Shown: piece after piece, positions 2,220 to 63,572 of the stretch | Numbering within the stretch: the first letter of the stretch is position 1 | How the letters are laid out: each line of letters starts with the position of its first letter | Assembly: GCA_038065455.1 (NCBI GenBank) | Contig: JBBTQX010000004.1 | Location: forward strand, 5,157 to 69,156 | Reading direction: 5' to 3' | DNA length: 64,000 nt | Source of the DNA: Patescibacteria group bacterium | Lineage (GTDB): Bacteria; Patescibacteriota; Minisyncoccia; UBA6257; GWB1-50-10 | Notes under the pieces: model-generated | Seen by the model: the letters and a program-made list of their open reading frames with translations, nothing else | Told to the model about the DNA's origin: nothing | Database searches by the model: none | Made by a program: the position numbers and the translations under genes

Positions 2220-3233
2220 TTACATATCGAGCACCGGGCGGCGCTCTTTCCTTTCGGTCAGATAATTGAAGATTTCTTGGACTAAGACAGCAAGCGGAAC
2301 ACTTAAGATTATCCCCACAAAACCGGCGATTTGGGCCCCAGCCAAAAGGGAAACAACCACGATTACCGGGTGTACTCTCATACTCTTACCCATTATGATC
2401 GGAATGAGTATATGATTCTCAAATTGCTGGACAACAAAAAAGAATGCTAAAGCATACATACCCAACGCCGTGGAATCGGCGATAGCGATAACGAAGGCAA
2501 TAAGCCCAATCATTATAGGACCGATGATCGGCACCACCTCGAATATGGCGGCGAGAATACCCAAAATCAGAGCGTAGCGAACGCCAATAAACCACATTCC
2601 CAATCCCACCGCGAAACCGACGAATAGACTCAATACCAGCTGAGTGCCGAGCCAGCGGCGCATTTTTATCTTGAATCCGTCGAAAATGGATAGAATCGGC
2701 CGTTCGTAATCATCCGGGATGATAACCCGTATCATTTTTTCCGCTCCGTCTTTTTCAATACTCAAATAAAGTGTGACAAAAATCGAGGAGAAGAAAAGAA
2801 TGGCGTTTCCGAAGAGTTTAGTAATCGCGCCGGGAACGGAATTGCCCGCGCCCGAAATCAAATTCAATATCTGATCCGCTCCGATATTCAAACTTTCCAA
2901 ACTCAAGCTGAAATTGCCGAAACGAAAAACCGAAGTAACGAATTGAGTAAAATGGAAAAGGAAGCCGGCCAGTTCCTCGAAGATAACCGGCGCTATGATG
3001 TATATTCCGCCGGCAAAAACGGAAATAATGGCGAGAATCACGATGATGGAGGCGAAGACCCGACCGATTCTGGCTTTCTCGGCGAGAAAAGTGACGAATG
3101 GGTCTATTCCCATCGAAATCACAACACCCACAAGAAGAACGGTGAAAGCATCCCAGGCGAAATAAACGAGCGCGATGCCCGCCAGAAAGATAAAAATCCT
3201 CCATAAAGTCCCCCAAGCCACTTCCGTTTTCAT
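2220..3233 (-). CDS. AI-2E family transporter (PerM/YhhT-like)
   Basis: This is a polytopic membrane protein with an AI-2E-like core (RRWLGTQLVLSLF..VPIIGPIMIGLIAFVIA). The start is probably the ATG at 3231-3233 (MKTEVAWG), which overlaps the inverted repeat of the element at 3231-3361. Confidence 0.55.
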   Translation of the reverse strand: MKTEVAWGTLWRIFIFLAGIALVYFAWDAFTVLLVGVVISMGIDPFVTFLAEKARIGRVFASIIVILAIISVFAGGIYIIAPVIFEELAGFLFHFTQFVTSVFRFGNFSLSLESLNIGADQILNLISGAGNSVPGAITKLFGNAILFFSSIFVTLYLSIEKDGAEKMIRVIIPDDYERPILSIFDGFKIKMRRWLGTQLVLSLFVGFAVGLGMWFIGVRYALILGILAAIFEVVPIIGPIMIGLIAFVIAIADSTALGMYALAFFFVVQQFENHILIPIIMGKSMRVHPVIVVVSLLAGAQIAGFVGIILSVPLAVLVQEIFNYLTERKERRPVLDM

Positions 3234-3361
3234 CCCGTTAGAAACAGGATACGCCGCTTTGGCGCATCCGTTGGGAATCAAGCGACCTCCGAGATTTGAT
3301 TTTTCTCATAATTACCTTCATTTTTATATCTTTAGAATACACCGGTTTCTAACGGGATTCA
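3231..3361. mobile_element. small element bounded by inverted repeats (copy a)
   Basis: The ends are CATCCCGTTAGAAAC ... GTTTCTAACGGGAT, a 14-bp inverted repeat. Inside, next to the left arm, is the hairpin GGATACGCC..GGCGCATCC, and the rest is AT-rich. The flanking pentamers TTCAT/TTCAT form a possible direct repeat. Confidence 0.6.
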
Positions 3362-4627
3362 TACTTTCACTATATCAAGAAAACTCCTCTTCTTAAAGGG
3401 CCCGATGAGCGCCAGATTCAAGCCGTCGTTTCTTACCACTTCCCGCATAACTTTTCTTACGTCATTCGCGGTTATTCCGTTTACCTTCCGAGCCAGCTCC
3501 TGAGGCGAGGTGAGCTTCAGTCCCAGCATTTCCTGGCCGCCGTAGAAATAAGCCAATTCATCCGAGGTTTCGAGCGAGAGATAAAGATTGCCTATCAGAT
3601 GTTCTTTGGCTTTTTTGAGATCTTTTTCGCTCACCAATTCGTTCCGCAAACGGTTGAATTCTTCCAAACCGGCCCTAATAACCGTTTCGATTTTTGTATG
3701 CTCGATTCCCGCCGCCATCGTCAAAAGGCCGTGATCGGAATAAAGGTCGGCATCGGCCCGCACATAATAGGCGGCGCCGAGCTCTTCCCGAATTCTTTGA
3801 AAAAAGCGCGAGCTCATTCCCCCGCCCAGGATTTCGGCCGCGACCTGGAGGGCGATTCGCCGCTCGTCGTGGACGCCGAAAGCGCGGAACCCGAGAACCA
3901 AGTGGGTCTGGTCCGATTTTTTGAATTGAATGAGTTCCCGCGGCCTGGCCTGAATCTCTTTAACTTTGAGTTTTTTGCTTTTGGGTCCGGGCTTCAAAAC
4001 CGAAAAATATTTTTCGATTCTTTTCGCGATGTCTTTCTCGCCGAAAGCGCCCGCGACCGTCACAATCGTGGCTTGAGGCACGTAGTGTTTCGCCCGATAT
4101 TTCATGAAGTCGTTCCGGGTGATGCTCCGAATAACTTCTTTACGGCCGAGAATATCCCAACCCGCCGGCTGATTGCCGTAGACGAGATTCATAAAAAGGC
4201 TCTGAACCTTCCGAGAAGGCGTATCCTCGTACATATTGAACTCCTGGATAATGACGCCTTTTTCTTTTTCGATTTCCCGGGAATCAAATGTCGGATTCAG
4301 ATACATATCGGCCACCACGTCCAATATCTCGTTCACATTCTCTTTTTTCGCTTTTGCATAATAGCTCGTGGATTCCTGACTCGTGAAAGCATTGGATTGC
4401 GCCCCAAGCCCGTCCATCTCCGCCGCAATATCAATCGGCTTCGGCCGCTTTGCCGTACCTTTGAAGCACATATGCTCCAGAAAATGCGAGATGCCGCTTA
4501 TGTCTTTCGTTTCGTATTTCGAGCCGGCCTCCACCGACACCATTACGGTCGCCGCCAGACTGCCCGATTGGGGCGCGAGAATAATCCGCAGACCGTTTTT
4601 TAATTTAATTCTTCTGATATTTTTCAT
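3359..4627 (-). CDS. M16-family zinc peptidase (insulinase-like)
   Basis: HFLEHMCFKGT carries the inverted zinc-binding HxxEH motif. It is 422 aa. Confidence 0.85.
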   Translation of the reverse strand: MKNIRRIKLKNGLRIILAPQSGSLAATVMVSVEAGSKYETKDISGISHFLEHMCFKGTAKRPKPIDIAAEMDGLGAQSNAFTSQESTSYYAKAKKENVNEILDVVADMYLNPTFDSREIEKEKGVIIQEFNMYEDTPSRKVQSLFMNLVYGNQPAGWDILGRKEVIRSITRNDFMKYRAKHYVPQATIVTVAGAFGEKDIAKRIEKYFSVLKPGPKSKKLKVKEIQARPRELIQFKKSDQTHLVLGFRAFGVHDERRIALQVAAEILGGGMSSRFFQRIREELGAAYYVRADADLYSDHGLLTMAAGIEHTKIETVIRAGLEEFNRLRNELVSEKDLKKAKEHLIGNLYLSLETSDELAYFYGGQEMLGLKLTSPQELARKVNGITANDVRKVMREVVRNDGLNLALIGPFKKRSFLDIVKV

Positions 4628-10330: not shown

Positions 10331-11437
10331 ATGAAGATACTCGCAATCGAAACGTCCTGCGATGAAACCGCGCTCGCGCTTCTCAAAGCAAGCGGGGGCT
10401 TGCGCGCTCCGAAATTTAAAGTCATTAAGAATCTGGTCTCTTCCCAGATAGAAGTGCATCGGCCCTGGGGTGGCGTCGTGCCGAACCTCGCCAAACGAGA
10501 ACACATTAAAAATTTGCCGATTGTGTTTGAGCAAATTTTTTCAAATCCTAAATACCGATTTCATCGAGTATCCTCGACAAAGTCGGGACAAATTCAAAAT
10601 TCTAAAATCCAAATTCCAAAAATTGATCTGCTGGCCGTAACAGTGGGACCGGGACTGGAGCCGGCACTTTGGACCGGCGTCGAATTCGCAAAAGAATTGA
10701 AAAAAAATATTTTTCCGAAAGTTCCGCTAATCGGCGCAAACCATTTGGAGGGACACCTATACAGTTTTTTGCTATCGCAAAAAACTGCAAATCCTAAATC
10801 CAAAATCCTAAATCCTAAAATATTTCCCGCAATTGCGCTTATAGCAAGCGGGGGTCATACCATTCTTCTCAAGATGGAATCACTCATAAAATGGAAAAAA
10901 TTGGGTGAAACGCGGGATGACGCGGTGGGCGAGGCTTTCGATAAAGCGGCAAGAATACTCGGCCTTCCCTACCCTGGCGGACCGGAAATTCAGAAGCTCG
11001 CAGCTAACGGCAATCCCGAAGCCGTCGCCTTCCCTCGTCCGATGATTTACGACAATTCGCCGACTGGCAAATATGAATTCAGTTTCTCTGGTTTGAAAAC
11101 TTCCGTCCTTTATTATCTGCGGGATAATCCGAAAGCCGACAAAGCGAATGTAGCCGCCTCATTCCAGAAAGCTGCGGTGGACGTTCTGATATCGAAAACC
11201 GCCCGCGCCGTTCGGGAATTTAAGGCGAAATCGGTAATGCTTTCGGGCGGCGTCGCGGCCAACGCGTATCTTAGAGACAGACTGCGAGAGGCAAGCGACA
11301 AGATGGGTGTAAATTTCCTGGTGCCGCCGATGGATTTCAATACCGATAACGCCGTGATGATCGCGGCCGCGGCCTATATCCAAAATCTGCGCAAAAAGAA
11401 ATACGCCATTCGCGCCCAAGGGAATTTGAATTTATAA
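10331..11437 (+). CDS. tsaD: tRNA N6-adenosine threonylcarbamoyltransferase TsaD (Kae1/Gcp family)
   Basis: MKILAIETSCDETALAL, LIASGGHT and GVAANAYLR are all present. Two low-complexity heptamer-repeat insertions are also present. Confidence 0.9.
   Translation: MKILAIETSCDETALALLKASGGLRAPKFKVIKNLVSSQIEVHRPWGGVVPNLAKREHIKNLPIVFEQIFSNPKYRFHRVSSTKSGQIQNSKIQIPKIDLLAVTVGPGLEPALWTGVEFAKELKKNIFPKVPLIGANHLEGHLYSFLLSQKTANPKSKILNPKIFPAIALIASGGHTILLKMESLIKWKKLGETRDDAVGEAFDKAARILGLPYPGGPEIQKLAANGNPEAVAFPRPMIYDNSPTGKYEFSFSGLKTSVLYYLRDNPKADKANVAASFQKAAVDVLISKTARAVREFKAKSVMLSGGVAANAYLRDRLREASDKMGVNFLVPPMDFNTDNAVMIAAAAYIQNLRKKKYAIRAQGNLNL
10589..10623. repeat. degenerate heptamer repeat (AAATTCA/AAAATCC ...) in tsaD
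   Basis: The sequence is aaattcaaaattctaaaatccaaattccaaaaatt. It encodes QIQNSKIQIPK. Confidence 0.7.
10789..10816. repeat. heptamer repeat AAATCCT/AAATCCA, 4 units, in tsaD
   Basis: The sequence is aaatcctaaatccaaaatcctaaatcct. It encodes ANPKSKILNPK. Confidence 0.85.
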
Positions 11438-11444
11438 TTGGAAT

Positions 11445-13709
11445 ATGAACGCTGATTTTTCAAAGCCCTATGACCCGAAGATAACCGAAGAAAAAATATA
11501 CCAGCTTTGGCTTGATTCCGGCTATTTCAATCCGGACAACCTGCCTGCGCAGGCAGGCCTGCCTGTCGCAAAAATCAAAAATTCAAAAATTAAAAATTAC
11601 GTGGTATATATGCCCCTCCCGAACGTGACGGGCACGCTCCATATGGGCCACGCCTTGAACAACACCATTCAGGATATTCTCATCCGTTATCATCGGATGA
11701 AGGGATATAAAACGCTCTGGCTCCCCGGCACAGACCACGCCGGCATCGCCACGCAGTACGTGGTGGAAAAAGACCTGCGAAAACAAAATATTTCCCGTTT
11801 CGAACTCGGCCGGGAAAAATTCGTGGAGAAGGTCTGGGAATGGAAGAAAAAATATGGCGACGCGATCTTAAACCAGCTCAAAAAAATTGGCATCTCGGCC
11901 GATTGGTCCCGCACGCGCTTCACGATGGACGAAGCCTATAGCCAAGATGTTTTAAAAGTCTTCGTTCATTACTACGAGAAGGGCTGGCTTTATCGCGGAC
12001 TCCGCACCGTGAACTGGTGCCCGAAGGATGGCACAAGCCTCTCCGAGCTGGAACTGGAATACGAGGATACCGAAACCAAACTCTGGTATATCAACTATCC
12101 GCTTACGGATAGTAAATCCGAAATCCGAAATCCGAAATCCGAATTCATAACAGTGGCGACAACGAGACCCGAAACGATGCTGGGCGATACCGCGATTGCC
12201 GTGAATCCCGCCGACAAGAGATACAAGCATCTTATCGGAAAGACCGTCGTCCTTCCGATTCAAAATCGAGAGATACCGATTGTGGGCGATATCGCGATAG
12301 ACCCTAAGTTCGGCACGGGCGCGGTCAAGGTGACGCCGGCCCACGATATTCTCGATTTCGAAATCGGCCAACGGCACAAACTGGAAACGATTCAGGTAAT
12401 AGACGAACGGGCCAAAATGACGGTGATAGCCGGAAAGTATGCCGGACTAAAAGCCGTTGAAGCCCGCGAAAAAATCGTGAACGACCTCAAAGAAATGGGG
12501 CTTCTGGTAAAAGAAGAAAAATATCAAACCCGCGTCGCGAAGTGCTACCGTTGCGGCACGATTATTGAGCCTATCCCATCCAATCAATGGTTTTTGAAGA
12601 TGGATAAATTGGGAGCGATGGCGAAGCAGGCCGTGAAATCCAAAAAAGTGAGAATTCAGCCGAAAAATTTCGAGAAAACCTACTTGAATTGGCTTGAAAA
12701 CGTCCGCGACTGGTCGGTCTCCCGCCAAATTTGGTGGGGACACCGGTTGCCGGTTTGGTTTCACGAGCCGAAGTGCGTTCCCAAAAAGGGCCGCGAAAAG
12801 GATTCCGCCAAGTGCGAGGAGATGGTGGTTTCGCTCACCGAACCGGAGTGTAAATATTGCGAAGGGAAATATATCCAATCGGAAGACGTGCTTGATACCT
12901 GGTTTTCCTCCGCTCTTTGGCCATTTGCCGGGCTTTCTAAAGAAGATGCAGAAAAATATTATCCCGGAAACGTCCTCGTAACCGCCCGCGACATCATTAA
13001 TTTATGGGTCGCGCGGATGATCTTCTCCGGCTTAGAATTCAAGAAAAAGGTTCCCTTCACTGATGTCTTCATTAACGGCACCATCCTTGCCAAGGACGGC
13101 CGGCGAATGTCCAAAAGCCTCGGCACTGGCATTGACCCGCTGAATTACATCGGACTGCATGGAGCGGACGCGACACGTTTCGCTATCATCTGGCAGGCCT
13201 CCGGCCAGGATATCCGCTGGGACGAGGCGGCCGTCATGGCCGGCCGGAAATTCTGCAATAAAATCTGGAACGCATCCCGCTTTGTTATAGAACAAAGCGG
13301 AAATCCGAAATCCGAAATCCGAAATCCGAAACCTCGAACGGCAGCGGATAAAAAGATTCTTAAGAAGCTCGCGGCGGTGAAAAAACAAACCGGAAAAAAC
13401 ATAGAAAAATTCGAGTTCTCGAAAGCGCTCCACGATATTTACGATTTCTTCTGGCATGAGTTCTGCGACATTTACATCGAGGAGACAAAAAAAATTCACC
13501 CCGTTAGAAATAGCCCGCCCCAAGGCCCGGAGGGCGCGCGCCGCGCGGGCGAGATTTCTAACGGGGCAGGAGGAAATTCGGCAGAAATATTGATGTATGT
13601 ATTAAAAGAATCCCTTAAAATGCTCCATCCATTCATGCCATTCATCACGGAAGCGATCTATGGAAACATGGCCGAAAAAAATGGGCTTTTAATGGTTGAA
13701 AAATGGTAG
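11445..13709 (+). CDS. valS: valyl-tRNA synthetase (C-terminally short)
   Basis: PNVTGTLHMGHAL is the HIGH region, DGRRMSKSLG is the KMSKS motif, and LHPFMPFITE is present. The protein is 754 aa. It contains two GAAATCC repeat insertions and a 69-bp element inserted in frame. Confidence 0.9.
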   Translation: MNADFSKPYDPKITEEKIYQLWLDSGYFNPDNLPAQAGLPVAKIKNSKIKNYVVYMPLPNVTGTLHMGHALNNTIQDILIRYHRMKGYKTLWLPGTDHAGIATQYVVEKDLRKQNISRFELGREKFVEKVWEWKKKYGDAILNQLKKIGISADWSRTRFTMDEAYSQDVLKVFVHYYEKGWLYRGLRTVNWCPKDGTSLSELELEYEDTETKLWYINYPLTDSKSEIRNPKSEFITVATTRPETMLGDTAIAVNPADKRYKHLIGKTVVLPIQNREIPIVGDIAIDPKFGTGAVKVTPAHDILDFEIGQRHKLETIQVIDERAKMTVIAGKYAGLKAVEAREKIVNDLKEMGLLVKEEKYQTRVAKCYRCGTIIEPIPSNQWFLKMDKLGAMAKQAVKSKKVRIQPKNFEKTYLNWLENVRDWSVSRQIWWGHRLPVWFHEPKCVPKKGREKDSAKCEEMVVSLTEPECKYCEGKYIQSEDVLDTWFSSALWPFAGLSKEDAEKYYPGNVLVTARDIINLWVARMIFSGLEFKKKVPFTDVFINGTILAKDGRRMSKSLGTGIDPLNYIGLHGADATRFAIIWQASGQDIRWDEAAVMAGRKFCNKIWNASRFVIEQSGNPKSEIRNPKPRTAADKKILKKLAAVKKQTGKNIEKFEFSKALHDIYDFFWHEFCDIYIEETKKIHPVRNSPPQGPEGARRAGEISNGAGGNSAEILMYVLKESLKMLHPFMPFITEAIYGNMAEKNGLLMVEKW
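11541..11603. repeat. GC palindrome plus AAAAATN heptamer run in the valS N-terminal region
   Basis: The GC palindrome is cctgcctgcgcaggcaggcctgcctg. It is followed by aaaaatcaaaaattcaaaaattaaaaatt, which encodes AKIKNSKIKN. Confidence 0.6.
12114..12141. repeat. tandem heptamer AAATCCG x4 in valS
   Basis: The sequence is aaatccgaaatccgaaatccgaaatccg. It encodes KSEIRNPKSE. Confidence 0.9.
13301..13328. repeat. tandem heptamer AAATCCG x4 in valS
   Basis: The sequence is aaatccgaaatccgaaatccgaaatccg. It encodes NPKSEIRNPK. Confidence 0.9.
13498..13566. mobile_element. small element bounded by inverted repeats (copy d), inserted in frame in valS
   Basis: The ends are CCCCGTTAGAAAT ... ATTTCTAACGGGG, a 13-bp inverted repeat. 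The core is GC-rich. At 69 bp it adds 23 codons (PVRNSPPQGPEGARRAGEISNGA). Confidence 0.6.
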
Positions 13710-15323: not shown

Positions 15324-16703
15324 CTAACGGCGCTTGAAAATTTTCTTGCAATAGAGATTGAATTTTTCTCCCCTATCGAACTCGTTCTTGAACTTCTCAA
15401 AGCTGGCCGCCCCCGGCGAAAAAATAATCATCCATTTCGTCTTTTTCTCTTTTTTTTCATAAATCACTTGGGTGGTATACTTAAGTATACCACCTAGATC
15501 TTCGTAGAAGTTTATTTTTTTGTTTTTAGAATATCCGATTTTCTCGAGCGCCGCGATCATTTTTTTGGTGGCGCTGCCGTTCAAAAGGAAAAGGTTTTCC
15601 GGTTTCACGAAGCGCTTTACTGTTTTCGCCCATCCGCCATATTCCAAGTTTTTATCCGTTCCACCGGAGATGAGGATAATATTTTCTTTTCCGAACCTCC
15701 GAAGAGCGGCTATCGTCCCATCGGGCGAGGTCGCCGTCGTGTCATTCACCACCGTAAGCTTCGGCGATTTGAAGACGATCTCCTCCCGGAATTTTATTCG
15801 CGGCAAACGCCAGGCCGCTCGTCGGAGAGCCGAAACGGGCACGCCGGCAAGTTTGGCGGCGAGATATGCGGCTTTGAAATTCTCCAGATTATGCGGACCG
15901 GAGATTTTGGAGAATTTCTTTTCATTTATACCGGTTTTTGCGGATGAATAGAGCATCTTTGAGCCGACCCTCCAATTGGAGAATTTTTTAAGGAAAAATT
16001 TCGTCCATTCGTTCCGGCAATTCAGAATCAAAAAATCTCCCTTCTTCTGGTTTTTGAATATATTCGCCTTCGCAGAAGCATAGCTGACAAGCGTCCGGTA
16101 GCGGTTCATATGGTCACGGTAGATATTGGTGATTACAGCCACTTCCGGACCCCGGCCGGATTGGCTTAAAAGCTCCAGGTGCCAGGACGAAAGTTCCGCG
16201 ACGACGGGCGACTTGCCGTCTAAGCCGTCCAGAATGCCGAGCAGGGGCTGGTCCGAGGAGTTGCCGGTAAGTTTCGCCTTCGGAAACTTTTGCTTCAATA
16301 AAAACAATATCCAGTTCACGGTTGTCGTCTTCCCCCGGGTGCCGGTCACGGCGATAATCGGATTTTTGCAGTATCGGAAGAACAAGCTCGCTTCATTCTC
16401 CAAACGCGCACCGTGTTTTTTGGCAATGGCGAGATACTTGCTCTCGCGCGGCACGGCTGGATTCACCACGATAATTTTATTGGTCTTGAAATCAGCTCTG
16501 CGGTGTTTGCCCAAAACGAAAATAATTTTTTTCGCCGCCGCGCCCAATTTATTTATCGAGTCTTTTAATTCCCCGCGCGAACGCAAATCCGTCACGGTCA
16601 CATTCGCGCCGTGCAGAATGAGCCACTTCGTGGTCGCAATCCCCCCGCCGAGCAGACCCAGGCCCATTACCAGTACTTTTTTGTTTTTTAACTCAATGGC
16701 CAT
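15324..16703 (-). CDS. murD: UDP-N-acetylmuramoylalanine--D-glutamate ligase MurD
   Basis: KKVLVMGLGLLGGG is the Rossmann-type N-terminus and IAVTGTRGKTTT is the P-loop. The C-terminus carries a 24-bp palindrome within the coding sequence. Confidence 0.85.
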   Translation of the reverse strand: MAIELKNKKVLVMGLGLLGGGIATTKWLILHGANVTVTDLRSRGELKDSINKLGAAAKKIIFVLGKHRRADFKTNKIIVVNPAVPRESKYLAIAKKHGARLENEASLFFRYCKNPIIAVTGTRGKTTTVNWILFLLKQKFPKAKLTGNSSDQPLLGILDGLDGKSPVVAELSSWHLELLSQSGRGPEVAVITNIYRDHMNRYRTLVSYASAKANIFKNQKKGDFLILNCRNEWTKFFLKKFSNWRVGSKMLYSSAKTGINEKKFSKISGPHNLENFKAAYLAAKLAGVPVSALRRAAWRLPRIKFREEIVFKSPKLTVVNDTTATSPDGTIAALRRFGKENIILISGGTDKNLEYGGWAKTVKRFVKPENLFLLNGSATKKMIAALEKIGYSKNKKINFYEDLGGILKYTTQVIYEKKEKKTKWMIIFSPGAASFEKFKNEFDRGEKFNLYCKKIFKRR

Positions 16704-20639: not shown

Positions 20640-20958
20640 AATCCGAGTTAGTATGATAATGGCGACCAATTCATCGGCCGCCATTTTTATTTCCTAAAAC
20701 CGTTTAGATATATAACTAAAAAAACAAGGTAGTATAATTGACTATACCACCTGGTAATTAATCCTTGAGTAATTCTATTTTAAAGCAGGCCTTTTCTCTT
20801 AATTCCTGACTTATATTCTTTTTGTTCACCCGTGTCATATTGATTTCTTTTTATTCTAGCATATATAAATAGTTCGACATGCTATACCATCTGGTAGTCT
20901 AATTGATTAGACTACCCATTATAATATGTGAAATTAGGGACATATTCAAACATTTTCT

Positions 20959-23282: not shown

Positions 23283-23368
23283 GGGCTGGTTAACCAGGCA
23301 GTAGAAACTCGATTAGGGTATGGATTCCGGCCGCGCCGCAATCGAGTTTTCACTACCTGGTTAATTGA
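23283..23368. repeat. inverted pair of the CGAGTTTCTACTACCTGGTTAA repeat, with a CTGGTTAACCAG palindrome
   Basis: The reverse copy is at 23283-23311 (ctggttaaccaggcagtagaaactcgatt). The forward copy is at 23340-23368 (aatcgagttttcactacctggttaattg). A third copy is at 33112-33140. Confidence 0.6.
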
Positions 23369-29317: not shown

Positions 29318-29347
29318 AAAGCGGGTGGTATACTCAAGTATACCACC
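29318..29347 (-). terminator. palindrome GGTGGTATACTCAAGTATACCACC plus T-run, acting as terminator for the ORF at 29378..29665
   Basis: On the minus strand the palindrome is followed by CGCTTTTTCTTTG. A near-identical palindrome lies at 15471-15494 inside murD. Confidence 0.5.
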
Positions 29348-31025: not shown

Positions 31026-31032
31026 TGGATTG

Positions 31033-31106
31033 TCGGCCCGGAAGGACTCGAACCTTCGAATAGACGAGGTATAAGCTCGTTGCATTAGCCGCTATGCTAC
31101 GGGCCG
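31033..31106 (-). tRNA. tRNA with anticodon UAU, putative tRNA-Ile2(UAU) reading AUA
   Basis: The cloverleaf has acceptor CGGCCCG/CGGGCCG, D-arm GCAT-AGCGGCTA-ATGC, anticodon arm ACGAG-CTTATAC-CTCGT, a 6-nt variable loop, T-arm GAAGG-TTCGAGT-CCTTC and discriminator A. It directly abuts the ftsH stop codon. Confidence 0.65.
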
Positions 31107-32951
31107 TTAGGCCTTCAATCCTACTTGCTTCAGATTAAAGCTTTTTATGATTTTGTAAAACTCTTCCTGTTCCAAGGTCTCTTTTTCCATGAGCGCCTTA
31201 GCGATGGTATCCAGAACGGTGCGGTGGGCCGTCACGATTTTTTTGGCGATGTTTAAGGTCTTCTCGATTATCTTATTCACCTCGGCATCTATTTCAGTAC
31301 CGACGGTTTCGGAATAATCTTTTTCAGTCGTCATCTCGCGGCCCAAAAAAATCAGTTCTTGGGTCTTGCCAAAGGTGCGCGGCCCGAGTTTTTCACTCAT
31401 GCCATATCTGGTCACCATCCGATGGGCATCGTCCGTCGCATTCTTGATATCACTCGAGGAGCCGGTCGTAATGTCTTTGAAAACCAATTGCTCCGCCACA
31501 TATCCGCCGAAGGATACGGCGAGGTCGGCCAAAAACTGCGTCTTGGTGCGGAGATGGGTTTCTTCAAGCGGCAATTTTATCGTATAACCGCCGGCCATTC
31601 CTCGGCTGATAATGGAAACCTTGTGTATCGGGTCGGCATCTTTCAAAGCCGCCGCGACAAGCGCGTGGCCGGCCTCGTGATAGGCGGTGATTTTCTTTTC
31701 GTTGTCGGAGATGACGCGGCTTCGGCGCGCGGGTCCGAGCATCACTTTCTCGATGGAACTCAAAAAATCTTCCTGGTCGACAATTTTCTTATTCTCCCGG
31801 GCGGCTTTGATGGCCGCTTCGTTTATGAGATTCGCCAAGTCCGCTCCGGCGAAGCCCGGCGTGCGCACCGCCACCACTTTCAAATCGACATTTTTCGCGA
31901 GCGGCTTTCCGATGGCGTGGATTTTCAAAATCTCTTCCCGGTCTTTGATGTCGGGACTGTCCAGAACCACGCGCCGATCGAATCGGCCGGGTCTCAAAAG
32001 CGCGGCGTCCAAAACATCCGGGCGATTTGTTGCCGCCATCACGATAACATTGGAGTTCCGTTCAAAGCCATCCATTTCAACGAGAATTTGATTCAAGGTC
32101 TGTTCGCGCTCGTCATGGCCGCCGCCCATCCCGGTGCCGCGCTCGCGTCCCACCGCATCAATCTCATCTATGAAAATAATGGAAGGCGCGGCTTTCTTGG
32201 CTGTCATAAACAAATCCCGCACGCGGCTTGCACCCACGCCCACGAACATTTCGACGAATTCCGAAGCGGAGATATGAAAAAAAGGAACATTGCTCTCGCC
32301 CGCCACCGCCCGGGCCAAAAGGGTTTTGCCCGTGCCCGGCAGACCCATCAGAAGCACGCCGCGGGGAATACGCGCGCCGATATCCAGAAATTTCTTGGAA
32401 TTTTTCAAAAAATCCACTACTTCGCGCAATTCTTCTTTGGCTTCTTTCAATCCCGCCACATCCTTGAAGGTCACCTTGTCCTTACTTCGGGAAAAGAGCT
32501 TGATGTTCATTTTGCCGAATGAAAAGGCCTGATTCGCTCCGGTCTTCGCTTGGCGGAATATCCACCAAAAAATCAAAACCATAACGATTATGGGCAGGAT
32601 AATCGGAACAAGAATACCCATCCAATATTTGAAACCACTCTCGTCTTGGACGCTCAGTTGCAGTTTTATCAAAGCTTCTTTCGTTACGCCGTAACCGGTG
32701 AGCGTTTCGATTATTCCCGTCTCGTTCTCCTTGCGCGAATGGGCGTTCGTCCCATCGTTCAATTTTATTTCCAAATCATTGCCATTCACATTCACGCTCT
32801 TCACCTCGCCTGCGATTATTTTTTGGGCCAGAGCGTCAATTGTGAGCTTCTGCGAATCCGTACCGGCCGGCGCCGAAAAAAGCGAAAAGATAAAAGCGAC
32901 GAAAAATAAAAGGATTATGGCGCCCGTGAAATTTTTGGTAAACTTTTTCAT
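31107..32951 (-). CDS. ftsH: ATP-dependent zinc metalloprotease FtsH
   Basis: The Walker A motif is GLPGTGKT. The second region of homology is present. HEAGHAL is the zinc-binding site. The N-terminus has TM segments. The ATG overlaps the inverted repeat of element copy b. Confidence 0.95.
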
Positions 32952-33064
32952 CCCGTTAGAAACAGGATGCGCTTTTTAAGCGTATCCGTATTATTAAACT
33001 TATTTATTTCTTTATTTTTCATGGAATATTCTATATTATACTTAGCAAATTTCTAACGGGATGA
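32949..33064. mobile_element. small element bounded by inverted repeats (copy b)
   Basis: The ends are CATCCCGTTAGAAAC ... ATTTCTAACGGGATG. The internal hairpin is GGATGCGC..GCGTATCC and the core is AT-rich. The left repeat arm contains the ftsH start codon. Confidence 0.6.
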
Positions 33065-33125
33065 ATATTTTATATCATAACAAAAAAACAAACCGCCCTC
33101 AAATGAGAGCGGGTTCGAGTTTCTA

Positions 33126-34217
33126 CTACCTGGTTAATTTCAAAACAATTCTCTTTTCCTGCGTTTTCACTTCGTGGACTGTGAAATCGTAGGCTTGGCC
33201 GATTGTCAGTTCTTTTCTCATTTCCGGCAAGCCGCCGAAATCCGTCACATGCACCTGACCCTGCAAACCGTGCTCCAGATTCACAACCGCGCCGAAAGGA
33301 TTGAAGACGTAGACCGTGCCCTTTACCGCATCGCTTTCCTTGAAAAGCTCTTCGACTTTGGTCCAGGGATCTTCTTTCAGAACCTTGAGCGAAAGCGAGA
33401 TACGGCCGTCCTTGATATCCACTATCTTGGCCTTAATCACTTCGTCTATTTTGACAAATTCCTTGGGGTTGTCGATTACGCGATGGTCAATTTCGGAAAC
33501 ATGGATGAATCCTTCAAGGGCCGGATTGTCGGTAAATCGGATAAAAATGCCGAAGTCCGCCACACCCGAGACCACTCCCTCGATATCCTGGCCAACCGAA
33601 TAGTTCTTGGCGAGCTCCTTGGCGCTCAATTCTTGGGCCGCCCGTTCGGAAACGATTAATTTGTTGGTGCGCGAGTTCGCATCGATTATTTTCACTTCGA
33701 ATTCCTGGCCCACAAAAGCCTGAAGCGCTTCGAGAATCTTGCCCTTTTCCTCCGCGCCGACTTTCGGATAGTGCTCGTTCGCCAATTGGGAAACTGGCAG
33801 GAAAGCTCCCAAGCCCCTGAGCTCGGCCATCAGCCCGCCTTTATTGAAACCGGTTATCTTCACTTTAATGGGCTCCTCTTTGCCCATCAATTCCTGAACA
33901 TCGGTCCAGGCTTTTTGTTTATCGGCTTGCGAAAGCGAGAGTTCTATTAATCCTTCTTCATTATCTATATTGACTACTTTGGCGTGCACCGGCTCGCCCA
34001 CATTCAAACTCTTCACAATTTCCTTCGCATTCTGAAGTTCGCCGCGATAAACGGCGCCCGTGCCGAAGCGGCCCAAATCTACCGTGAGCATTTTGGAACT
34101 TTTCTCCATTACTTTCCCTTCCACGAGATCGCCCGTCTTCAGGGTCGGCAAAAAATTCGGGTCCGTTTTCAAAAACTGGCCGATGAGGGTGTTCGCGCTC
34201 GGTTTCACTTTATCCAT
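33126..34217 (-). CDS. rpsA: 30S ribosomal protein S1-like (four S1 domains)
   Basis: Four tandem S1 / OB-fold modules are present. It is 363 aa, a short form of rpsA. Confidence 0.7.
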   Translation of the reverse strand: MDKVKPSANTLIGQFLKTDPNFLPTLKTGDLVEGKVMEKSSKMLTVDLGRFGTGAVYRGELQNAKEIVKSLNVGEPVHAKVVNIDNEEGLIELSLSQADKQKAWTDVQELMGKEEPIKVKITGFNKGGLMAELRGLGAFLPVSQLANEHYPKVGAEEKGKILEALQAFVGQEFEVKIIDANSRTNKLIVSERAAQELSAKELAKNYSVGQDIEGVVSGVADFGIFIRFTDNPALEGFIHVSEIDHRVIDNPKEFVKIDEVIKAKIVDIKDGRISLSLKVLKEDPWTKVEELFKESDAVKGTVYVFNPFGAVVNLEHGLQGQVHVTDFGGLPEMRKELTIGQAYDFTVHEVKTQEKRIVLKLTR

Positions 34218-34253
34218 ACTTGACGAAGATTATCATAAAAGCGCGTTGAAAAT

Positions 34254-34331
34254 CAATCCCGTTAGAAATCACGCCCGCGCGCAAGCGCGCCCCGCAGGGG
34301 CCTGCGGGGCGGGCTATTTCTAACGGGATCA
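34254..34331. mobile_element. small element bounded by inverted repeats (copy c), with a GC-rich hairpin core
   Basis: The ends are ATCCCGTTAGAAAT ... ATTTCTAACGGGAT, a 14-bp perfect inverted repeat. The core is GCCCGCCCCGCAGG-GGCC-CCTGCGGGGCGGGC. The flanks are ATCAAT and ATCAAC. Confidence 0.6.
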
Positions 34332-34387
34332 ACCCCTAAATTCATTGCTGAACATCAGAAACAATGATAAAATAGGATAAATTCAGT

Positions 34388-35335: not shown

Positions 35336-38300
35336 ATGAATAAAGAAAAAGAAATACCGGAAGAAAGAAGGGACAAGATTCAGGCGCAGGAGATTACCTC
35401 CGAGCTCCGCGATTCCTATCTGGACTACGCGATGTCCGTCATCGTCTCGCGGGCTTTGCCCGACGTGCGCGACGGCCTGAAGCCGGTTCAGCGGAGAATT
35501 CTCTGGGCGATGTGGGACGACAGCCTGACGCACAGCGCCAAGTTCCGGAAATCGGCCAATGTCGTGGGTGCGGTCTTAGGGCGCTATCATCCGCACGGCG
35601 ACATCGCACTTTACGACGCGATGGCCCGAATGGCCCAGGATTTTTCCCTGCGCTATCCGCTAGTTGACGGGCAAGGCAATTGGGGATCGATCGACGGGGA
35701 TTCTCCCGCAGCAATGCGTTACTGCGTAACCGGAAACACTTTAATCATTACCGAAAAAGGACTGGTTCCGATTGAAAGTTTAGGAGATTCAAAAAATCTG
35801 GACGGCGAAGAAAAAAATATTCAAATAAAAATACTTTCTAAAAATAGGGGGGTTAACAAAGCCGTGAAATGGTTTGACAGCGGCAGACATCCAACGATTA
35901 AAGTGGAAACGAATCACGGATTTTCCTTGACGGGCAGTGAAAATCATCCGATTCTCACTTGGATAAAAAATCCCGCCACTGGCGCTCCTTCTTTCTCGTG
36001 GAAACTTTTAAACGATGTAAAAGAAGGAGATTTTGCCGTTATTGAAAGAACTTCCGATTTGTTATGGCCGGAAAAAAATATCAACCTGGCTTCTTATTGG
36101 CCAAATGAAAATAGGCGCTGGGATAAAAAAATCCTACCCAGAGAGTTGGATGAAAATTTAGCGTTCGTGCTTGGGGCGTTAATAGCGGAGGGAACAATCA
36201 AAGAAAATGAGATTGAATTCTGTAACAGCGATCCCGAATTCATAGATGAATTTAAGGCGAAATGGCGGAATGTTTTCCCCGATTGCCGCCTCCATCAGTT
36301 TTACCGCAAGCCGAATTCTTTTGGCAAAAAACCTTACCAAACGCTGGAGATACACTCCCGGCAAGTGGCGGCTCTATTGAGAAATGTCGGTCTTTTACCC
36401 GTGAAATCCGCCAAAAAAACGATTCCTAATCTGGTTCTTCAATCACCAAAGTCAGTTGTCGCTTCTTTCTTAAGGGCCTATTTCGAAGGAGACGGCAGTA
36501 TCAGCTGGAGCGGGAGAATGAACGAACTTAGCGCGGTTTCCACAAGCGAGAAACTTATTAAAGAAATTCAAATAGCACTTTTGAGATTTGGGATAGTATC
36601 CGCGAAAAGATTTGATAGATTAAAAAGCAATCACAAGCTCTATATTCGCGGCCTGAAAAACTACGCGCTTTTCAAAAAGCAGGTAGATTTTGCTGTTTCG
36701 GTCAAAAAAACAAAGTTGAACGGCTTATTGGAAAAAACCGAAAGAGATTCTTCATTGACGGACTTCGTGCCATTTTTATCAGAATTCATAAGGAAAAATA
36801 CGGAACGAGATTATAAAAAAGAAAGAATAACCAACCATTACAATTTTGACCGTTATTCAAACCTAAAAAACAGAGAAGCGGGCATATTAACTGCGGTTCG
36901 CTCCGAAATAAAAACCAAAACCGCCGGAGTCCTGGAATCCCTACTTTCAAACAATTACCTTTTTGACCCGATTGTAAAAGTGGAAAAAGGCGGAATTGAA
37001 AAAGTTTATTCGGTAAAAGTCGCCAGTGATTGCCACTCTTTCGTTGCGAACGGTTTTATAAATCACAACACGGAGGCGCGCCTTTCGCGGATAGCGGAGG
37101 AACTTCTCACGGATATCGAAAAAGAAACGGTGGATTGGCAGCCGAACTACGACGCCACCCGCGAAGAACCGAAATTCCTGCCGGCCCGGCTTCCGAATCT
37201 GCTTTTGAACGGCACGGTCGGCATCGCGGTCGGTATGGCGACATCCATTCCGCCCCATAATCTGGGCGAGATTGCGGACGCGACCGCTCATCTAATAGAG
37301 CACCCCGACGCCGATATAAAAGAATTGATGCAATTTATGCCCGGGCCGGACTTTCCGACCGGCGGAATCATCTACGACAAAAAAGCGCTCGAGGAAGCCT
37401 ACACGACCGGCAAGGGTTCGGTCACTATCCGCGCCAAAGCTGAGATAGAAGAAAGAACCCATTCAAAACACACCGGTCAGGCGTCATCGGGCAGCTTCCA
37501 GATAATCATCTCCGAAATTCCGTATCAGGTGAATAAATCCGATCTCATCACCAAGATGGCCGAACTCGTGACGGACAAGAAAATCGAGGGTATCCGCGAC
37601 ATTCGCGACGAATCCGACCGTGAAGGCCTCCGCATCGTCGTGGAATTAAAGAACGACTCCTCGCCCCAGAAAATACTGAATCAGCTCTATGAATATACCG
37701 AACTCCAGAAGAATTTTTATTACAACGTTCTCGCGCTCGTAAACGGCCTTCAGTCGGAGATACTATCGCTCAAAGACGTGCTCTCGGAATATCTGGAACA
37801 CCGGAAAATAGTAATTCGCCGCCGAACGGAATTCGACCTCAAAAAAGCCCAGGACCGCGCCCATATTCTCGAAGGCCTCGTTAAGGCACTCGATAACATA
37901 GACAAAATAATCTCGACCATCAAGAAATCGAGAGACCGCGAAACGGCGAAACAGAGTCTGGTCAAGAATTTCAAACTCTCACCTCTCCAAGCCGACGCCA
38001 TTTTGGAAATGAAACTTCAAAGTCTTGCCGCCCTCGAACGGGAAAGACTGGAGAACGAGCTTAAGGAAAAAAGAAAGCTTATCGCTGAGCTCGAGTTGAT
38101 ATTAAAACAGCCGAAGAGGATATTAGGCATCATTAAAGATGATCTTCTGGATCTCAAAAAAATCTTCGCTGACCCGCGCCGGACGAAAATCATCGCGACC
38201 GGACTTAAAGAATTCAAGGAAGAGGATCTAATTCCTCAAGAAGAGGCTATTATCACCTTCACTCAAGACGGCTATGTGAAAAGGATGCCGCCGACGACCT

Positions 38301-39172
38301 TCCGCGTGCAGAAGCGCGGCGGCAAGGGTCTTATCGGTTCCGATCTCAAGGATGAAGACTTGATCAACCAACTCCTTTCGGCCGACACGCACGATAACAT
38401 TATCTTCTTCACGACCGGCGGAAAAGCCTTTCAAACAAAAGTTTACGAAATACCGGTGGCCGCTCGCACCGCGAAAGGCAAATCAATCCATAACTTCTTG
38501 GAGATTCCGCCGAACGAAAAAGTGAGTGCGATTGTCACCTATCCGCAGGCGCACGCCGACGGCAAGCACTTTATGGTAATGGTGACGAAAAGCGGCGTGG
38601 TGAAGAAAACCCCATTGGCGGATTTCGAAAATGTCCGCCGGAGCGGCATCATCGCCATCAAATTGAGCGCGGGCGACATTCTGGGCTGGATAAAGCTTTC
38701 CGAAGGCGATGATCAGATAATCCTCGTAAGCGCTCTCGGACAGGCTATCCGTTTCAAGGAAAAAGACATTCGGGGTATGGGTCGCGCGGCCGCGGGCGTA
38801 CGCGCCATCCATCTCAAGAAAAGCGACAGCGTGAGCGGGCTTGATATAATAAAGAAAGAGAATTCGGACAAATCAAGAATGGTGGCGGTGATGGCGAATG
38901 GCTTCGCTAAACAGACGGCGCTCAAAGAGTATAAAATCCAGCGCCGGGGCGGCTCGGGAACAAAGACGGCCAAGATTACGGATAAGACGGGGCCGGTCAT
39001 CGGAGCGCATATCGTGGACGATAAAGTAGAGGAGGTGTTGGCTTTTTCGACTAAGGGCCAAGCCATCCGGACACCGCTCAAAGATATCAGAGTATTGAGC
39101 CGCGCCACGCAAGGGGTGAAGATTATGAACCTGGAAAAGGGGGATAATCTGGTGGGAATAGTGTGCTTATAG
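35336..39172 (+). CDS. gyrA: DNA gyrase subunit A containing an intein
   Basis: The N-extein reads ..[22 protein letters not shown] 449-aa intein follows. The C-extein reads [11 protein letters not shown].., then the GyrA core and the beta-pinwheel C-terminal domain. The extein is 829 aa. Confidence 0.9.
35723..37069 (+). other. GyrA intein with LAGLIDADG homing endonuclease domain, inserted after the catalytic Tyr
   Basis: It begins CVTGNTLI (Cys1). [14 protein letters not shown] and [12 protein letters not shown] are the LAGLIDADG blocks. It ends ..VANGFINHN, followed by Thr at +1. It sits at the same site as the Mxe GyrA intein. Confidence 0.85.
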
Positions 39173-55196: not shown

Positions 55197-55257
55197 AAAC
55201 AAGCAAAAACCGTAAAAACAGAAAAATATTAGTAATTCATTATAATTTAGAATATTG

Positions 55258-55288
55258 CAAAGTTATACTGTCATGACATAATAACTTA
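55258..55288. promoter_or_regulatory. imperfect palindrome CAAAGTTATAcTGTCATGACAtaATAACTTaG overlapping promoter-like TATAAT/TAGAAT elements upstream of the second PaaX-like gene
   Basis: It is about 26 bp with an ATGTCATGACAT core. Its perfect twin lies downstream of the gene at 55876-55909. Confidence 0.5.
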
Positions 55289-55293
55289 GTAAA

Positions 55294-55863
55294 ATGCGAA
55301 TTAGGAGAAACTCACAACCCTATCGCCTTCTTAAATACCTTGCTATAGGCACCGGTGTTTTGACACTCTCTCTTATAGCGCCGGTAAGCGGCGCGATGCT
55401 GGTGAAAAATTTTATCCGCTATTATTTCAGGAATAAAAAGTTTCAAAAATATCGATTTCTAAATGATTTGAAAAATCTCCAAAGTAGAGAATTGGTATCG
55501 TATAAAGAGGAGGGGAGAGGAGTGGTGAAAATCACCCTTACTAAGAACGGCCGGGAGAAAATACTGCGGTACCAAATTGATGAAATAAAAATAAAAAAGC
55601 CCGCCCGCTGGGATGGGCAATGGCGGCTGATAATGTTTGATATACCGCATTACAAACGCATTGCCCGCGACGCTTTTCGGACAAAGCTGAAAAATTTGGA
55701 ATTCTATCCTATTCAGAAAAGCGTATTTATCACTCCTTATCCCTGCGAGAATGAGATAGATTTTATAGCGTCTATTTTTGATGTAAGAAAAGAGGTTCTT
55801 ATCCTTTATGTGAGCCGATTTGAAGGGGAGGAGAAATTCAAAAATCACTTCAAAATATACTAA
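55294..55863 (+). CDS. PaaX-like transcriptional regulator family protein (paralog)
   Basis: WDGQWRLIMFDIPHYKRIARDAFRTKLKNLEFYPIQKSVFITP resembles the PaaX C-terminal domain pattern. Confidence 0.5.
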   Translation: MRIRRNSQPYRLLKYLAIGTGVLTLSLIAPVSGAMLVKNFIRYYFRNKKFQKYRFLNDLKNLQSRELVSYKEEGRGVVKITLTKNGREKILRYQIDEIKIKKPARWDGQWRLIMFDIPHYKRIARDAFRTKLKNLEFYPIQKSVFITPYPCENEIDFIASIFDVRKEVLILYVSRFEGEEKFKNHFKIY

Positions 55864-62803: not shown

Positions 62804-63439
62804 ATGTCCGATACACCGCAACCATCCCAGCAATTCGTTCCGATAAAAGAGATTCGGGACGGCGTCGTTTATCTTAAAAATGGCGGGCTTCGCCAGCTCC
62901 TGATAGTGAGCGGGGTGAATTTTGAATTGAAATCCGAGGCCGAACAAAACCTGATTCTCGGCGGCTTCCAGAACTTCATCAACTCGCTCGATTTTTCCGT
63001 TCAAATCTTCGTCCATTCCCGCAAAGTGAATGTGGATAATTATCTGGCAAAAATGGACATGCGGAAAAAAGACGAGCAGAATGAGCTTTTAAAAATCCAA
63101 ATAGAGGAGTATGCGAATTTCATCCGGAGTTTCGTGGACCAGAACGCCATTATCAGCAAGAATTTTTTCATAGTGGTGCCCTACGACCCGATTGCCGCTC
63201 CGGCCGCCGCGAAAGGATTTCTCGGCCTTTTCGGCAAAAAAACTTCCGATAACGAGAAGAATGTTATGGAGAAAGAAAACTTGGAACAGCTCCGCCACCG
63301 GACGGAGCAGGTGATAGAAGGATTAAGCCAGACCGGAATCCGAGCCGCTATTTTGGAAAACGAAGAAGCAACGGAACTTTTTTATAATCTGTACAATCCC
63401 CAGCTCGTCGAGAAAAGAACTTTGGATATAGCCAAATAA
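62804..63439 (+). CDS. VirB4/TrbE-like conjugation ATPase, N-terminal segment (split gene)
   Basis: VPIKEIRDGVVYLKNGGLRQLLIVSGVNFELKSEAEQNLILGGFQNFINSLDFSVQIFVHSRKV...ELFYNLYNP resembles the N-terminal region of the Gram-positive VirB4 type (PrgJ/TcpF/ConE-like). Confidence 0.55.
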   Translation: MSDTPQPSQQFVPIKEIRDGVVYLKNGGLRQLLIVSGVNFELKSEAEQNLILGGFQNFINSLDFSVQIFVHSRKVNVDNYLAKMDMRKKDEQNELLKIQIEEYANFIRSFVDQNAIISKNFFIVVPYDPIAAPAAAKGFLGLFGKKTSDNEKNVMEKENLEQLRHRTEQVIEGLSQTGIRAAILENEEATELFYNLYNPQLVEKRTLDIAK

Positions 63440-63440: not shown

Positions 63441-63572
63441 ATGAATCCCGTTAGAGACATAAGCCTTATGAAAAATATGATTACCAAACAATCAATGAAA
63501 TCCAATAAAGTCGAGTTAACTAATCCATCACGGATGCGCTTTTTGAGCGCATCCTGTCTCTAACGGGATGAA
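63441..63572. mobile_element. small element bounded by inverted repeats (copy e), lying between the two halves of the VirB4-like gene
   Basis: The ends are ATCCCGTTAGAGAC ... GTCTCTAACGGGAT. The hairpin GGATGCGC-tttttga-GCGCATCC sits next to the right arm. ATGAAT is directly repeated on both flanks. The right flank supplies the ATG of the downstream ORF. Confidence 0.6.

Follow-up and report, generated by a model that had tools for sequence, protein, structure and literature searches.

The inverted repeats that overlap the start codons of ftsH and of an AI-2E transporter gene in a stretch of 64,000 nucleotides (nt) from a Patescibacteria group bacterium (contig JBBTQX010000004.1, positions 5,157 to 69,156; the whole stretch is called the window below and positions are counted from its first letter) are most probably internally deleted, non-autonomous copies of a very small mobile element that encodes a GIY-YIG nuclease. 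We give this reading a probability of roughly 0.8, on the basis of the anatomy of the ends and of the target-site duplication, the chimeric start codon, the polymorphism between strains and the fixed orientation. Five copies of the element were found in the window, with ends of the form Y-CCCGTTAGAAA…TTTCTAACGGG-R and a flanking 4-bp duplication of the type T-N-N-A, mostly TGAA. The paired-arm pattern occurred 4 times in the window, as against 0.00 in 100 shuffles, and the fifth copy, at 63446-63568, carried an A-to-G variant of the arm.

Copies at the ftsH and transporter start codons

The original prediction had placed the CAT of one repeat arm exactly on the ATG of ftsH (32949-32951) and on that of the transporter gene (3231-3233), and had pointed out that both genes begin with ATGAAAA; the first of these statements was confirmed by direct reading of the sequence, and the second also held. 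The plus strand reads CATCCCGTTAGAAAC at 32949-32963 and ATTTCTAACGGGATGA at 33049-33064 next to ftsH, and CATCCCGTTAGAAAC at 3231-3245 and GTTTCTAACGGGATTCA at 3345-3361 next to the transporter gene, the arm complementary to CATCCCGTTAGAAAC lying 87-101 nt away. FtsH is encoded by the open reading frame (ORF) at 31107..32951 (minus strand, 614 amino acids; Pfam matches AAA and Peptidase_M41) and the transporter by the gene at 2220..3233 (minus strand, 337 amino acids; Pfam match over residues 11-324). The features at the two start codons are as follows.

32951..33061, minus strand: short element copy 3, directly upstream of ftsH; 111 nt with T...A ends, arms at 32952-32962 and 33050-33060
32949..32951, minus strand: ftsH start codon, its A being the terminal base of the element (32951) and its TG belonging to the target 4-mer
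32947..32950, minus strand: gene-side target 4-mer of copy 3 (TGAA on the minus strand)
33062..33065, minus strand: distal flank of copy 3, where the minus strand reads TTCA and TGAA was expected
32948..33022, minus strand: 24-codon mini-ORF within copy 3, ending in KKRILFLTG*, whose TGA overlaps the ftsH ATG
33074..33102, minus strand: sigma-70-like ftsH promoter (TTGAGG-17-TGnTATGAT), the element now standing between promoter and ATG
3233..3357, minus strand: short element copy 1, filling the junction between the M16 peptidase and AI-2E transporter genes; 125 nt, site empty in L133 and L132
3229..3232, minus strand: right TGAA copy of copy 1, which gives the TG of the transporter start (3231-3233), the A being element base 3233
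3358..3361, minus strand: left TGAA copy of copy 1, containing the TGA (3359-3361) at which the M16 peptidase gene 3359..4627 stops
3238..3342, minus strand: 34-codon ORF in copy 1, ending in RMRQSGVSCF*, which stops at the TAA of the arm, 4 nt before the transporter ATG

Copy 1 carries at its far end the stop codon of the upstream peptidase gene, a point that had gone unnoticed before. The ftsH ATG is the first possible start of its frame, because an in-frame TAA stands at 32976-32978, eight codons upstream, and no alternative start codon occurs between this ATG and the first transmembrane segment.

A tRNA-Ile with the anticodon UAU lies immediately past the ftsH stop (window 31032-31106) and is followed by tRNA-Val(UAC). 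Mechanical ORF calls run the host genes into the arm: the transporter gene was called from a TTG at 3281 (window 2220-3281), and a call on the minus strand of L118 (4166-5473) was likewise extended into the arm, beginning with MISNGM. Public annotations of such genes probably carry false, element-encoded N-terminal extensions.

Empty sites and orthologues

The presence of the element differs between strains that are 97-99% identical. The spacer between the S1 gene and ftsH in L002-L004 (97% FtsH identity) is 64 nt long, holds no element and reads ...GTTATGATGAAGATTCAAATA-TGAA-AAAGTTTACC, and the ftsH spacer is also free of the element in L005 and L008 (87-90% FtsH identity). In L002 the ftsH promoter sequence lies 14 nt from the ATG. 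Compared with L002, the distal flank of copy 3 carries two substitutions, by which the duplicate ATG has gone and the inverted repeat has been lengthened to 16-17 bp; presumably only the copy of the 4-mer that the gene could dispense with was free to change, possibly by palindrome-templated mutation. L006 and L007 (86%) have a copy at ftsH with the same arms and an unrelated interior, which likewise abuts the ATG, with ATGAAT at its left and ATGAAA at its right.

At the transporter gene L133 (99% transporter identity) provided an exact empty site, ...GTGAAGATA-TGAA-AACGGAAGTGG, in which the peptidase stop and the transporter start form an ATGA overlap. The window reads ...GTGAAAGTA-TGAA-T(CCCG...CGGG)A-TGAA-AACGGAAGTGG at the same junction, the insertion consisting of T, the arms and A plus the duplicated TGAA. 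This comparison shows that the transporter start codon is composed of the terminal A of the element and the TG of the right TGAA, and that the left TGAA keeps the peptidase stop. The suggestion that the end of the element supplies or remodels the start codon was therefore borne out by the empty site, A coming from the element and TG from the duplicated target. Elements with C...G ends read ATGAA-C at the left and G-TGAA at the right, so that a native ATG has become GTG (six examples), and here the origin of the first base of the new start codon from the element is directly seen.

Comparison with orthologues, proposed along with the original prediction, pointed to the same starts. FtsH homologues assign the window to the Patescibacteria. 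The N-termini of nearly all of the 120 best FtsH homologues read MK(K/N)(F/L)xKN at the same position, indicating that the ATG-AAA start is ancestral, and together with the in-frame stop they exclude a true ftsH start upstream, inside the element. The transporter gene of the empty-site strain L133 starts at the same ATG, and a true start within the element, where the TTG at 3281 lies, is excluded by this strain. More distant transporter orthologues are 3-5 residues longer owing to an unrelated 15-nt indel, and the idea that the element had shortened the transporter N-terminus by 5 residues was ruled out, since the short form is also that of the empty-site strain.

Short copies in other genomes

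Short copies were collected with a paired-arm scan of one genome per species, which returned at least 120 loci, about 2 chance hits being expected by our own estimate. Among the loci listed were many Patescibacteria classes and large contigs of Planctomycetota, Desulfobacterota ('Deltaproteobacteria'), Omnitrophota, KSB1, WOR-3, an anammox bacterium and others. The statistics given here refer to 123 non-redundant copies among the matches listed, with 64-128 nt between the arm ends and diverse interiors. The arms Y-CCCGTTAGA(A/G)A were present at both ends of the 5 window copies and of these 123 copies, forming terminal inverted repeats as in MITEs (miniature transposable elements with inverted repeats). 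Just outside the arms the two flanking bases covary (T...A in 59 copies, C...G in 60) and are Y/R complementary in 120/123. The next 4 nt form a direct repeat with the consensus T-N-N-A, identical at 102, 88, 90 and 101 of 123 copies for the successive positions, and the 4-bp duplication is perfect in 75/123 (TGAA 15, TTCA 14, TAAA 10, TTGA 6, TTTA 5). TGAA/TTCA is thus the commonest type, accounting for 29 of the 75 perfect duplications. A 6-bp duplication RTNNAY was ruled out, since agreement at the two outer positions is limited to 64 and 48 of the 123 copies, while Y/R complementarity holds in 120.

The short copies are polar. The arrangement TTYA-element-TRAA was observed in 12 copies, including the one at ftsH, and the opposite arrangement in 0; a hairpin stands beside the gene-proximal arm in 11/11, and the internal arm-tip motif, a third copy of the arm tip found in many copies, lies forward in 12 and in reverse in 0.

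Several other identities were considered for the repeats and discarded. The ORF between two copies in L022 is a lipoprotein-like gene, which rules out a composite transposon or an autonomous insertion sequence there, and phage carriage as the main vehicle was ruled out by finding only 3 matches in the viral collection. The attC consensus of integrons has the order 5'-RYYYAAC ... GTTRRRY-3' on the cassette strand; the element has, on either strand, GTTAGAA ... TTCTAAC, which is the attC order reversed, so that an integron attC was also ruled out.

The coding form and its relation to the short copies

The first coding elements were found as arm pairs about 277 nt apart in L069, an Omnitrophota metagenome-assembled genome, and in L118, where ORFs of 89 and 84 amino acids fill the interval; both match PF01541, the catalytic domain of GIY-YIG nucleases (E = 5.7e-14 and 3.6e-16). 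A metagenome scan for arms 240-270 nt apart gave at least 120 loci and 113 non-redundant elements. Homologous GIY-YIG ORFs were detected with phmmer in 88/113 (78%) of the ~277-nt elements listed and were intact, with 84-90 amino acids, in 83/113. Their median pairwise identity is 63%, the hallmark residues Y, Y-x-G, R, H-N and E are near-invariant, and they consist of the catalytic domain only. The closest relatives of solved structure are the uncharacterised UPF0213 proteins BH0048 (1zg2, E = 2.1e-13) and EF2693 (1ywl, E = 8.6e-5); SLX1 was matched faintly (E = 0.49), and NCBIfam gave a weak match to a group I intron endonuclease. The GIY-YIG nuclease is the only protein found between the arms. 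Two full-length copies lie 5.7 kb apart in L166 (2132-2410 and 7873-8151), and L118 carries a full-length and a short copy in one contig (3870-4170 and 5459-5577), the coding copy there abutting another arm with a TTCA common to both.

The reading frame of the nuclease is fitted to the ends of the element. It begins 13-28 nt inside one end, and its stop is the TGA of the duplication, overlapping the host RTG, in 54/83 copies, the protein ending in KRFLSLTG* with L-T-G encoded by the arm (CTA ACG GGR); in 18/83 the stop is the TAA of the arm, 4 nt before the host start. When copies were oriented by the nuclease ORF, the 4-mer on the 3' side was TGAA in 45/83 and TAAA in 10, and never the complement. 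The nuclease ORF has the orientation of the host gene: in 39/79 full-length copies the junction is the exact start of a host ORF, as against 1 at the opposite end. Where the left copy of the target is still a start codon, an in-frame fusion of the native start with M-N-P-V-R-D... and the nuclease was found in 17/29, and a Shine-Dalgarno-like motif of the element's own in 0/29.

The short copies share with the ~277-nt form both the arms and the duplication, as expected of MITEs and their longer coding element. In window copies 1, 3 and 5, 9-11 of the 12-13 nt past the right arm are those of the 3' coding end of full-length elements, the nucleotides beyond the arm being identical at 11/13 positions in copy 3 and 11/12 in copy 1. 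The C-terminus of the mini-ORF in copy 3 matches the ...KRFLSLTG* of the nuclease, and copy 5 retains the region of the nuclease start, CCTTATG, with the same offset of the ATG. Copy 5 is also the third copy in the window that begins a gene, its right end, which the original prediction had passed over, forming the ATG at 63568-63570 on the plus strand.

63446..63568, plus strand: short element copy 5, 123 nt, with the arm variant CCCGTTAGAGA, also present in full-length elements; between the ORF 62804..63439 and the gene starting at 63568
63441..63563, plus strand: 40-codon ORF MNPVRDISL...RMRFLSASCL*, from the retained native ATG across copy 5 to the TAA of the arm, 4 nt before the host ATG

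The retained native ATG of this ORF is made of A63441 and the left TGAA copy (63442-63445), and its layout is the same as that of the in-frame fusions of full-length copies. Over the whole family, sense ORFs of at least 20 codons that end at the TAA of the arm numbered 16, as against 3 in the antisense control. A universal upstream ORF terminating on the host ATG of short copies was ruled out, being present in the +4 frame in only 16/49.

Placement relative to genes

An R-T-G at one end of the element starts an ORF of at least 80 codons in 56/123 short copies (46%), and of 76 ends with ATG or GTG, 56 (74%) are gene starts. The null was the fraction of gene starts among tolerable RTGRR sites (gene starts plus intergenic sites) in the same loci, which was 10.6%. 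Chance coincidence of CAT with ATG, named beforehand as what would speak against the overlap, is thereby ruled out by the shuffles and by the start-codon null. The suspected preference for TTTCAT/ATGAAA targets was also substantiated, as a T-N-N-A duplication in which TGAA/TTCA is commonest. The original prediction had offered the target preference and the element-supplied start codon as alternatives; both are correct and compatible.

At the other end of the element the stop of the upstream gene lies in the duplication or the arm in 18 copies, the TAG of the arm itself ends 11 incoming ORFs, and an open frame spans 8 copies (copy 2 in the valyl-tRNA synthetase ValRS and 7 elsewhere).

Proposed mechanism and alternatives

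The complete element measures about 277 nt and consists of 12-nt terminal inverted repeats (Y-CCCGTTAGARA) around a single gene for a nuclease of 84-90 residues from the UPF0213/Slx1-like branch. Its insertion duplicates a 4-bp T-N-N-A. In a start region the left copy then keeps the native start, together with the upstream stop at ATGA overlaps, and the terminal purine of the element plus the TG of the right copy make the new start codon of the host gene. Having no ribosome-binding site of its own, the complete element would rely for translation on the native start that it has captured, in many cases giving an in-frame fusion that begins MNPVRD..., and its ORF would terminate on the TGA that overlaps the host ATG or on the TAA 4 nt before it, whereupon ribosomes may reinitiate on the host gene. 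Such reinitiation would make the insertion tolerable and let the nuclease be expressed. Judging by the geometry of the junctions, we consider this translational coupling of the nuclease ORF to the host gene an even bet.

How the element moves is something that we infer. The nuclease may recognise the arms, or a hairpin formed by them, and make cuts staggered by 4 nt at the element ends and at TGAA-type targets, and the cohesive ends would be joined by host ligation or repair. The duplication, the precision of the empty sites and the constant orientation would all be explained by this model; mobility driven by the nuclease is nevertheless a tentative proposal, with the odds somewhat against it. 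We are equally reserved about the broader proposal of a new class of prokaryotic transposable elements, in which the Slx1-like nuclease of about 85 residues would itself be the mobility enzyme, adapted to start codons, spread across many phyla and spawning MITE-like derivatives that enter coding sequences, too, in frame. Such an element would capture a host initiation site and hand the ribosomes back through the ATGA overlap. In our main reading the short copies at ftsH, at the transporter gene and at the third gene would be mobilised in trans, as selfish DNA that reshapes 5' leaders by placing short ORFs upstream and a 14-17-bp stem at the AUG.

Several points weigh against this interpretation. 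What the GC-rich copies 2 and 4 have in common with the coding form is limited to the arms and the duplication, and the duplication is imperfect in 48/123 copies. Both scans required exact arms, so that the family counts are samples and the conservation of the arms is partly built in, and the gene calls of the null model are crude. A suitable upstream ORF, with the arm-TAA frame included, was present in only 34/56 short copies, and the case for coupling is geometric throughout. A search of the proteins encoded in the window for GIY-YIG homologues gave none, which makes a trans-acting source in this genome an assumption. Finally, the nuclease of about 85 residues has no separate DNA-binding domain, and GIY-YIG enzymes hydrolyse DNA; we know of none that carries out strand transfer.

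The strongest alternative, which falls a little short of even odds, concerns the placement: start codons would reflect survival and not targeting, the element hitting any TNNA and only those insertions spreading that preserve function (at an RTG start, an ATGA overlap or the edge of a -35 box), with autonomous copies expressed only where a host initiation site has been captured. The flanks hold little information past about 6 nt, the GC-rich short copies lie mostly away from starts, the genomes are compact, and the enrichment of in-frame capture of the native start (17/29) fits an expression advantage. It is also favoured by a second class of sites, at the 5' edge of promoter -35 boxes, where the ends read R-TTGAC (L026, L041, L061, L076, L106, L113, L136, L240 and L245, of which L061 has TTGACA-17-TATAAT) and the TTGA duplication leaves the promoter intact: a -10-like hexamer follows at 16-18 nt in 9/14 of these ends, compared with 57/526 (11%) of the other ends. 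However, intergenic RTGRR sites outnumber gene starts about 8:1 in the same loci, yet gene starts make up 74% of the RTG ends; an element landing at a start takes away the ribosome-binding site and should therefore do more harm than one in a spacer; and orientation is strict even in short copies that have no intact ORF.

Ordinary MITEs, mobilised by a DDE/DDD transposase of the classical kind that is encoded elsewhere, for example one of the IS1380/piggyBac type, with the GIY-YIG ORF as passenger or domesticated cargo, are an unlikely reading of the repeats. The (Y)CCC termini and the 4-bp T-N-N-A duplication do resemble piggyBac, the precise empty sites fit its seamless excision, and GIY-YIG enzymes are not known transposases. 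Against this, arm pairs separated by 0.4-5 kb, in loci with the element that total about 0.95 Mb, enclosed no ORF of transposase size, the GIY-YIG protein being the only one found between arms; the start and stop of the nuclease are built into the arms and the duplication; and a passenger is not expected to be present with conserved catalytic residues in 78% of copies.

Far less probable is a host regulatory RNA, that is, a leader, attenuator or translational switch made of the arms and the interior, and not selfish DNA. In predicted folds the AUG stands inside or at the base of a 14-17-bp stem (z about -3), the arms of copy 3 forming a 17-bp stem that takes in the AUG; a hairpin followed by a U-rich run occurs just upstream of the ATG, polarity is fixed, and the internal third copy of the arm tip could pair alternatively. 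The interiors, however, are unrelated between copies at the same gene (window and L006), the element is present or absent among strains 97-99% identical, it is flanked by target-site duplications and by unrelated genes in many phyla, it is read in frame in ValRS and seven other ORFs, and a protein-coding parent exists. A known RNA family was discarded, Rfam giving no match at the gathering score and only chance-level hairpin matches in E-value mode.

Mobile promoters for the downstream gene, as very improbable, were rejected: although the distal-arm TAGAAA/TAGAGA of copies 3 and 5 is followed 16-18 nt later by TAGAAT/TATGAT, a sigma-70 pattern directed toward the gene, the sense/antisense control showed no strand bias, -10-like boxes at the right spacing being as common away from the gene as toward it in 56 gene-oriented copies (10 vs 10 at a match of at least 4/6, 6 vs 3 at a match of at least 5/6), and the interiors holding 59 sense and 73 antisense -10-like hexamers.

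Other copies and repeats in the window

The two GC-rich copies lie at sites of other kinds.

13499..13566, plus strand: short GC-rich copy 2, in the ValRS anticodon-binding domain, read through in frame and encoding ...HPVRNSPPQGPEGARRAGEISNG...
34257..34328, no strand assigned: short GC-rich copy 4, in the divergent spacer between the S1 gene and a gene for a metallo-beta-lactamase fold; TCAA duplication at 34253-34256 and 34329-34332

Copy 2 inserts about 24 residues (IHPVRNSPPQGPEGARRAGEISNG) into a variable loop of the anticodon-binding domain, and this 24-residue segment is absent from 11/11 aligned ValRS orthologues. The site of copy 4 is empty in L002-L004, being a single TCAA in L002, and in L006 this TCAA is occupied by a related copy.

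A second inverted-repeat family, CCAGGYAGTAGAAACTCGA...TCGAGTTTYCACTACCTGG, likewise has a 4-bp TNNA duplication; its copy in the window lies at 23294-23360, with TTAA at 23290-23293 and 23361-23364, and a solo arm occurs at 33113-33133, directly after the stop of the S1 gene and beside a terminator hairpin. In L005 (about 1330-1440) a copy of this family occupies exactly the TCAA of copy 4, with the same TCAA duplication. Tandem heptanucleotide repeats AAATCCG of 3-4 units are found at window positions 12114-12143, 13301-13330, 10590-10819 and 4977-5012; those at 13301-13330 are translated within ValRS as KSEIRNPKSE-like inserts, another type of short repeat tolerated in this essential gene. 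The perfect 25-nt palindrome GGGTGGTATACTYAAGTATACCACC has three intergenic copies (window 15470-15494, 20727-20751 and 29323-29347). An inverted repeat of 45 nt, 84% complementary (55248-55292 / 55874-55918), surrounds an ORF of 189 amino acids at 55294..55863 and could be an invertible segment or another small element. Next to the region under study, the GyrA-like ORF has 1278 amino acids in the window (35336-39172) and 1093 in L002 (L002 1-828), with an intein domain match, and GyrA of L005/L006 has 821 amino acids and no intein domain match, which suggests a polymorphic intein in gyrA.

Significance and comparison with known systems

Full-text literature searches, which did not extend to subscription journals, gave no relevant paper containing the arm sequence and no account of a GIY-YIG gene flanked by inverted repeats; the element is apparently undescribed. 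If our interpretation is right, it would be among the smallest protein-coding mobile elements known, at about 280 bp, and would use a nuclease fold that no recognised family of insertion sequences employs. It would also change how the widespread 'hypothetical GIY-YIG/UPF0213' genes are read, which have so far been taken as repair enzymes. Selfish DNA could persist in extremely compact genomes by inserting at a start codon or ATGA overlap, rebuilding the stop and the start and borrowing the translation signals of the host. This would explain odd annotations in Patescibacteria and other uncultured phyla, such as GTG starts beside repeats, short insertions into essential proteins like ValRS and over-extended ORFs whose start lies within the arm. 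At their initiation sites the ftsH and transporter mRNAs now have a short upstream ORF and a stable hairpin, and they are probably expressed differently from those of element-free sister strains. A nuclease so compact, for which both ends and target are defined, could be interesting for applications.

The short copies resemble bacterial MITEs such as Correia, RUP and Nezha in being short and multicopy, with terminal inverted repeats, target-site duplication and strain polymorphism, in arising by internal deletion of a longer coding element, and in affecting the expression of neighbouring genes. They differ in their parent, since the known parents are insertion sequences with DDE-type transposases and here it would be a GIY-YIG nuclease of about 85 amino acids only. 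A 2024 review of prokaryotic MITEs mentions neither insertion at, or rebuilding of, start codons nor a nuclease parent (PMC10969869). The palindromic elements of Rickettsia are also short palindromic repeats; like copy 2 in ValRS, they sit in frame in essential protein-coding genes and are translated with them (PMC10969869). They are confined to Rickettsia, with no coding parent, duplication or start-codon placement described.

The element shares with piggyBac/IS1380 the CCC termini, a duplicated 4-bp TNNA and empty sites that look seamless, a resemblance only. PiggyBac has CCC termini and a TTAA duplication (variants TAAA, TCAA and TATG), with IS1380 as prokaryotic outgroup (PMC10813416). By comparison, no DDD/DDE transposase was found here, an extra covarying base stands outside the CCC, and the target is TGAA and not TTAA.

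Among nuclease genes, the seg genes of T4-like phages and the I-TevI-type endonucleases are alike in being selfish GIY-YIG genes placed between host genes and expressed from host signals. Those enzymes are at least 200 residues long and carry, on a linker, a separate C-terminal DNA-binding domain (PMC1564403), whereas the present ones have 84-90 residues. They home to a cognate allele and have neither inverted repeats nor duplication, whereas the element occurs at many unrelated loci and has both, and its nuclease is of the other, Slx1/UPF0213-like lineage. The closest proteins are the UPF0213/YhbQ/prokaryotic Slx1-like ones, which are clearly homologous and likewise consist of a minimal GIY-YIG domain with no auxiliary domain. 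A survey of 2006 viewed the standalone prokaryotic Slx1-like GIY-YIG proteins as vertically inherited repair enzymes, derived the selfish members from a UvrC-like lineage and noted one 'recently inserted' domain in an HsdR gene, that of Methylococcus capsulatus (PMC1564403). In contrast to the proteins of that description, the subfamily reported here is bounded by inverted repeats and target-site duplications, is polymorphic and occurs in multiple copies.

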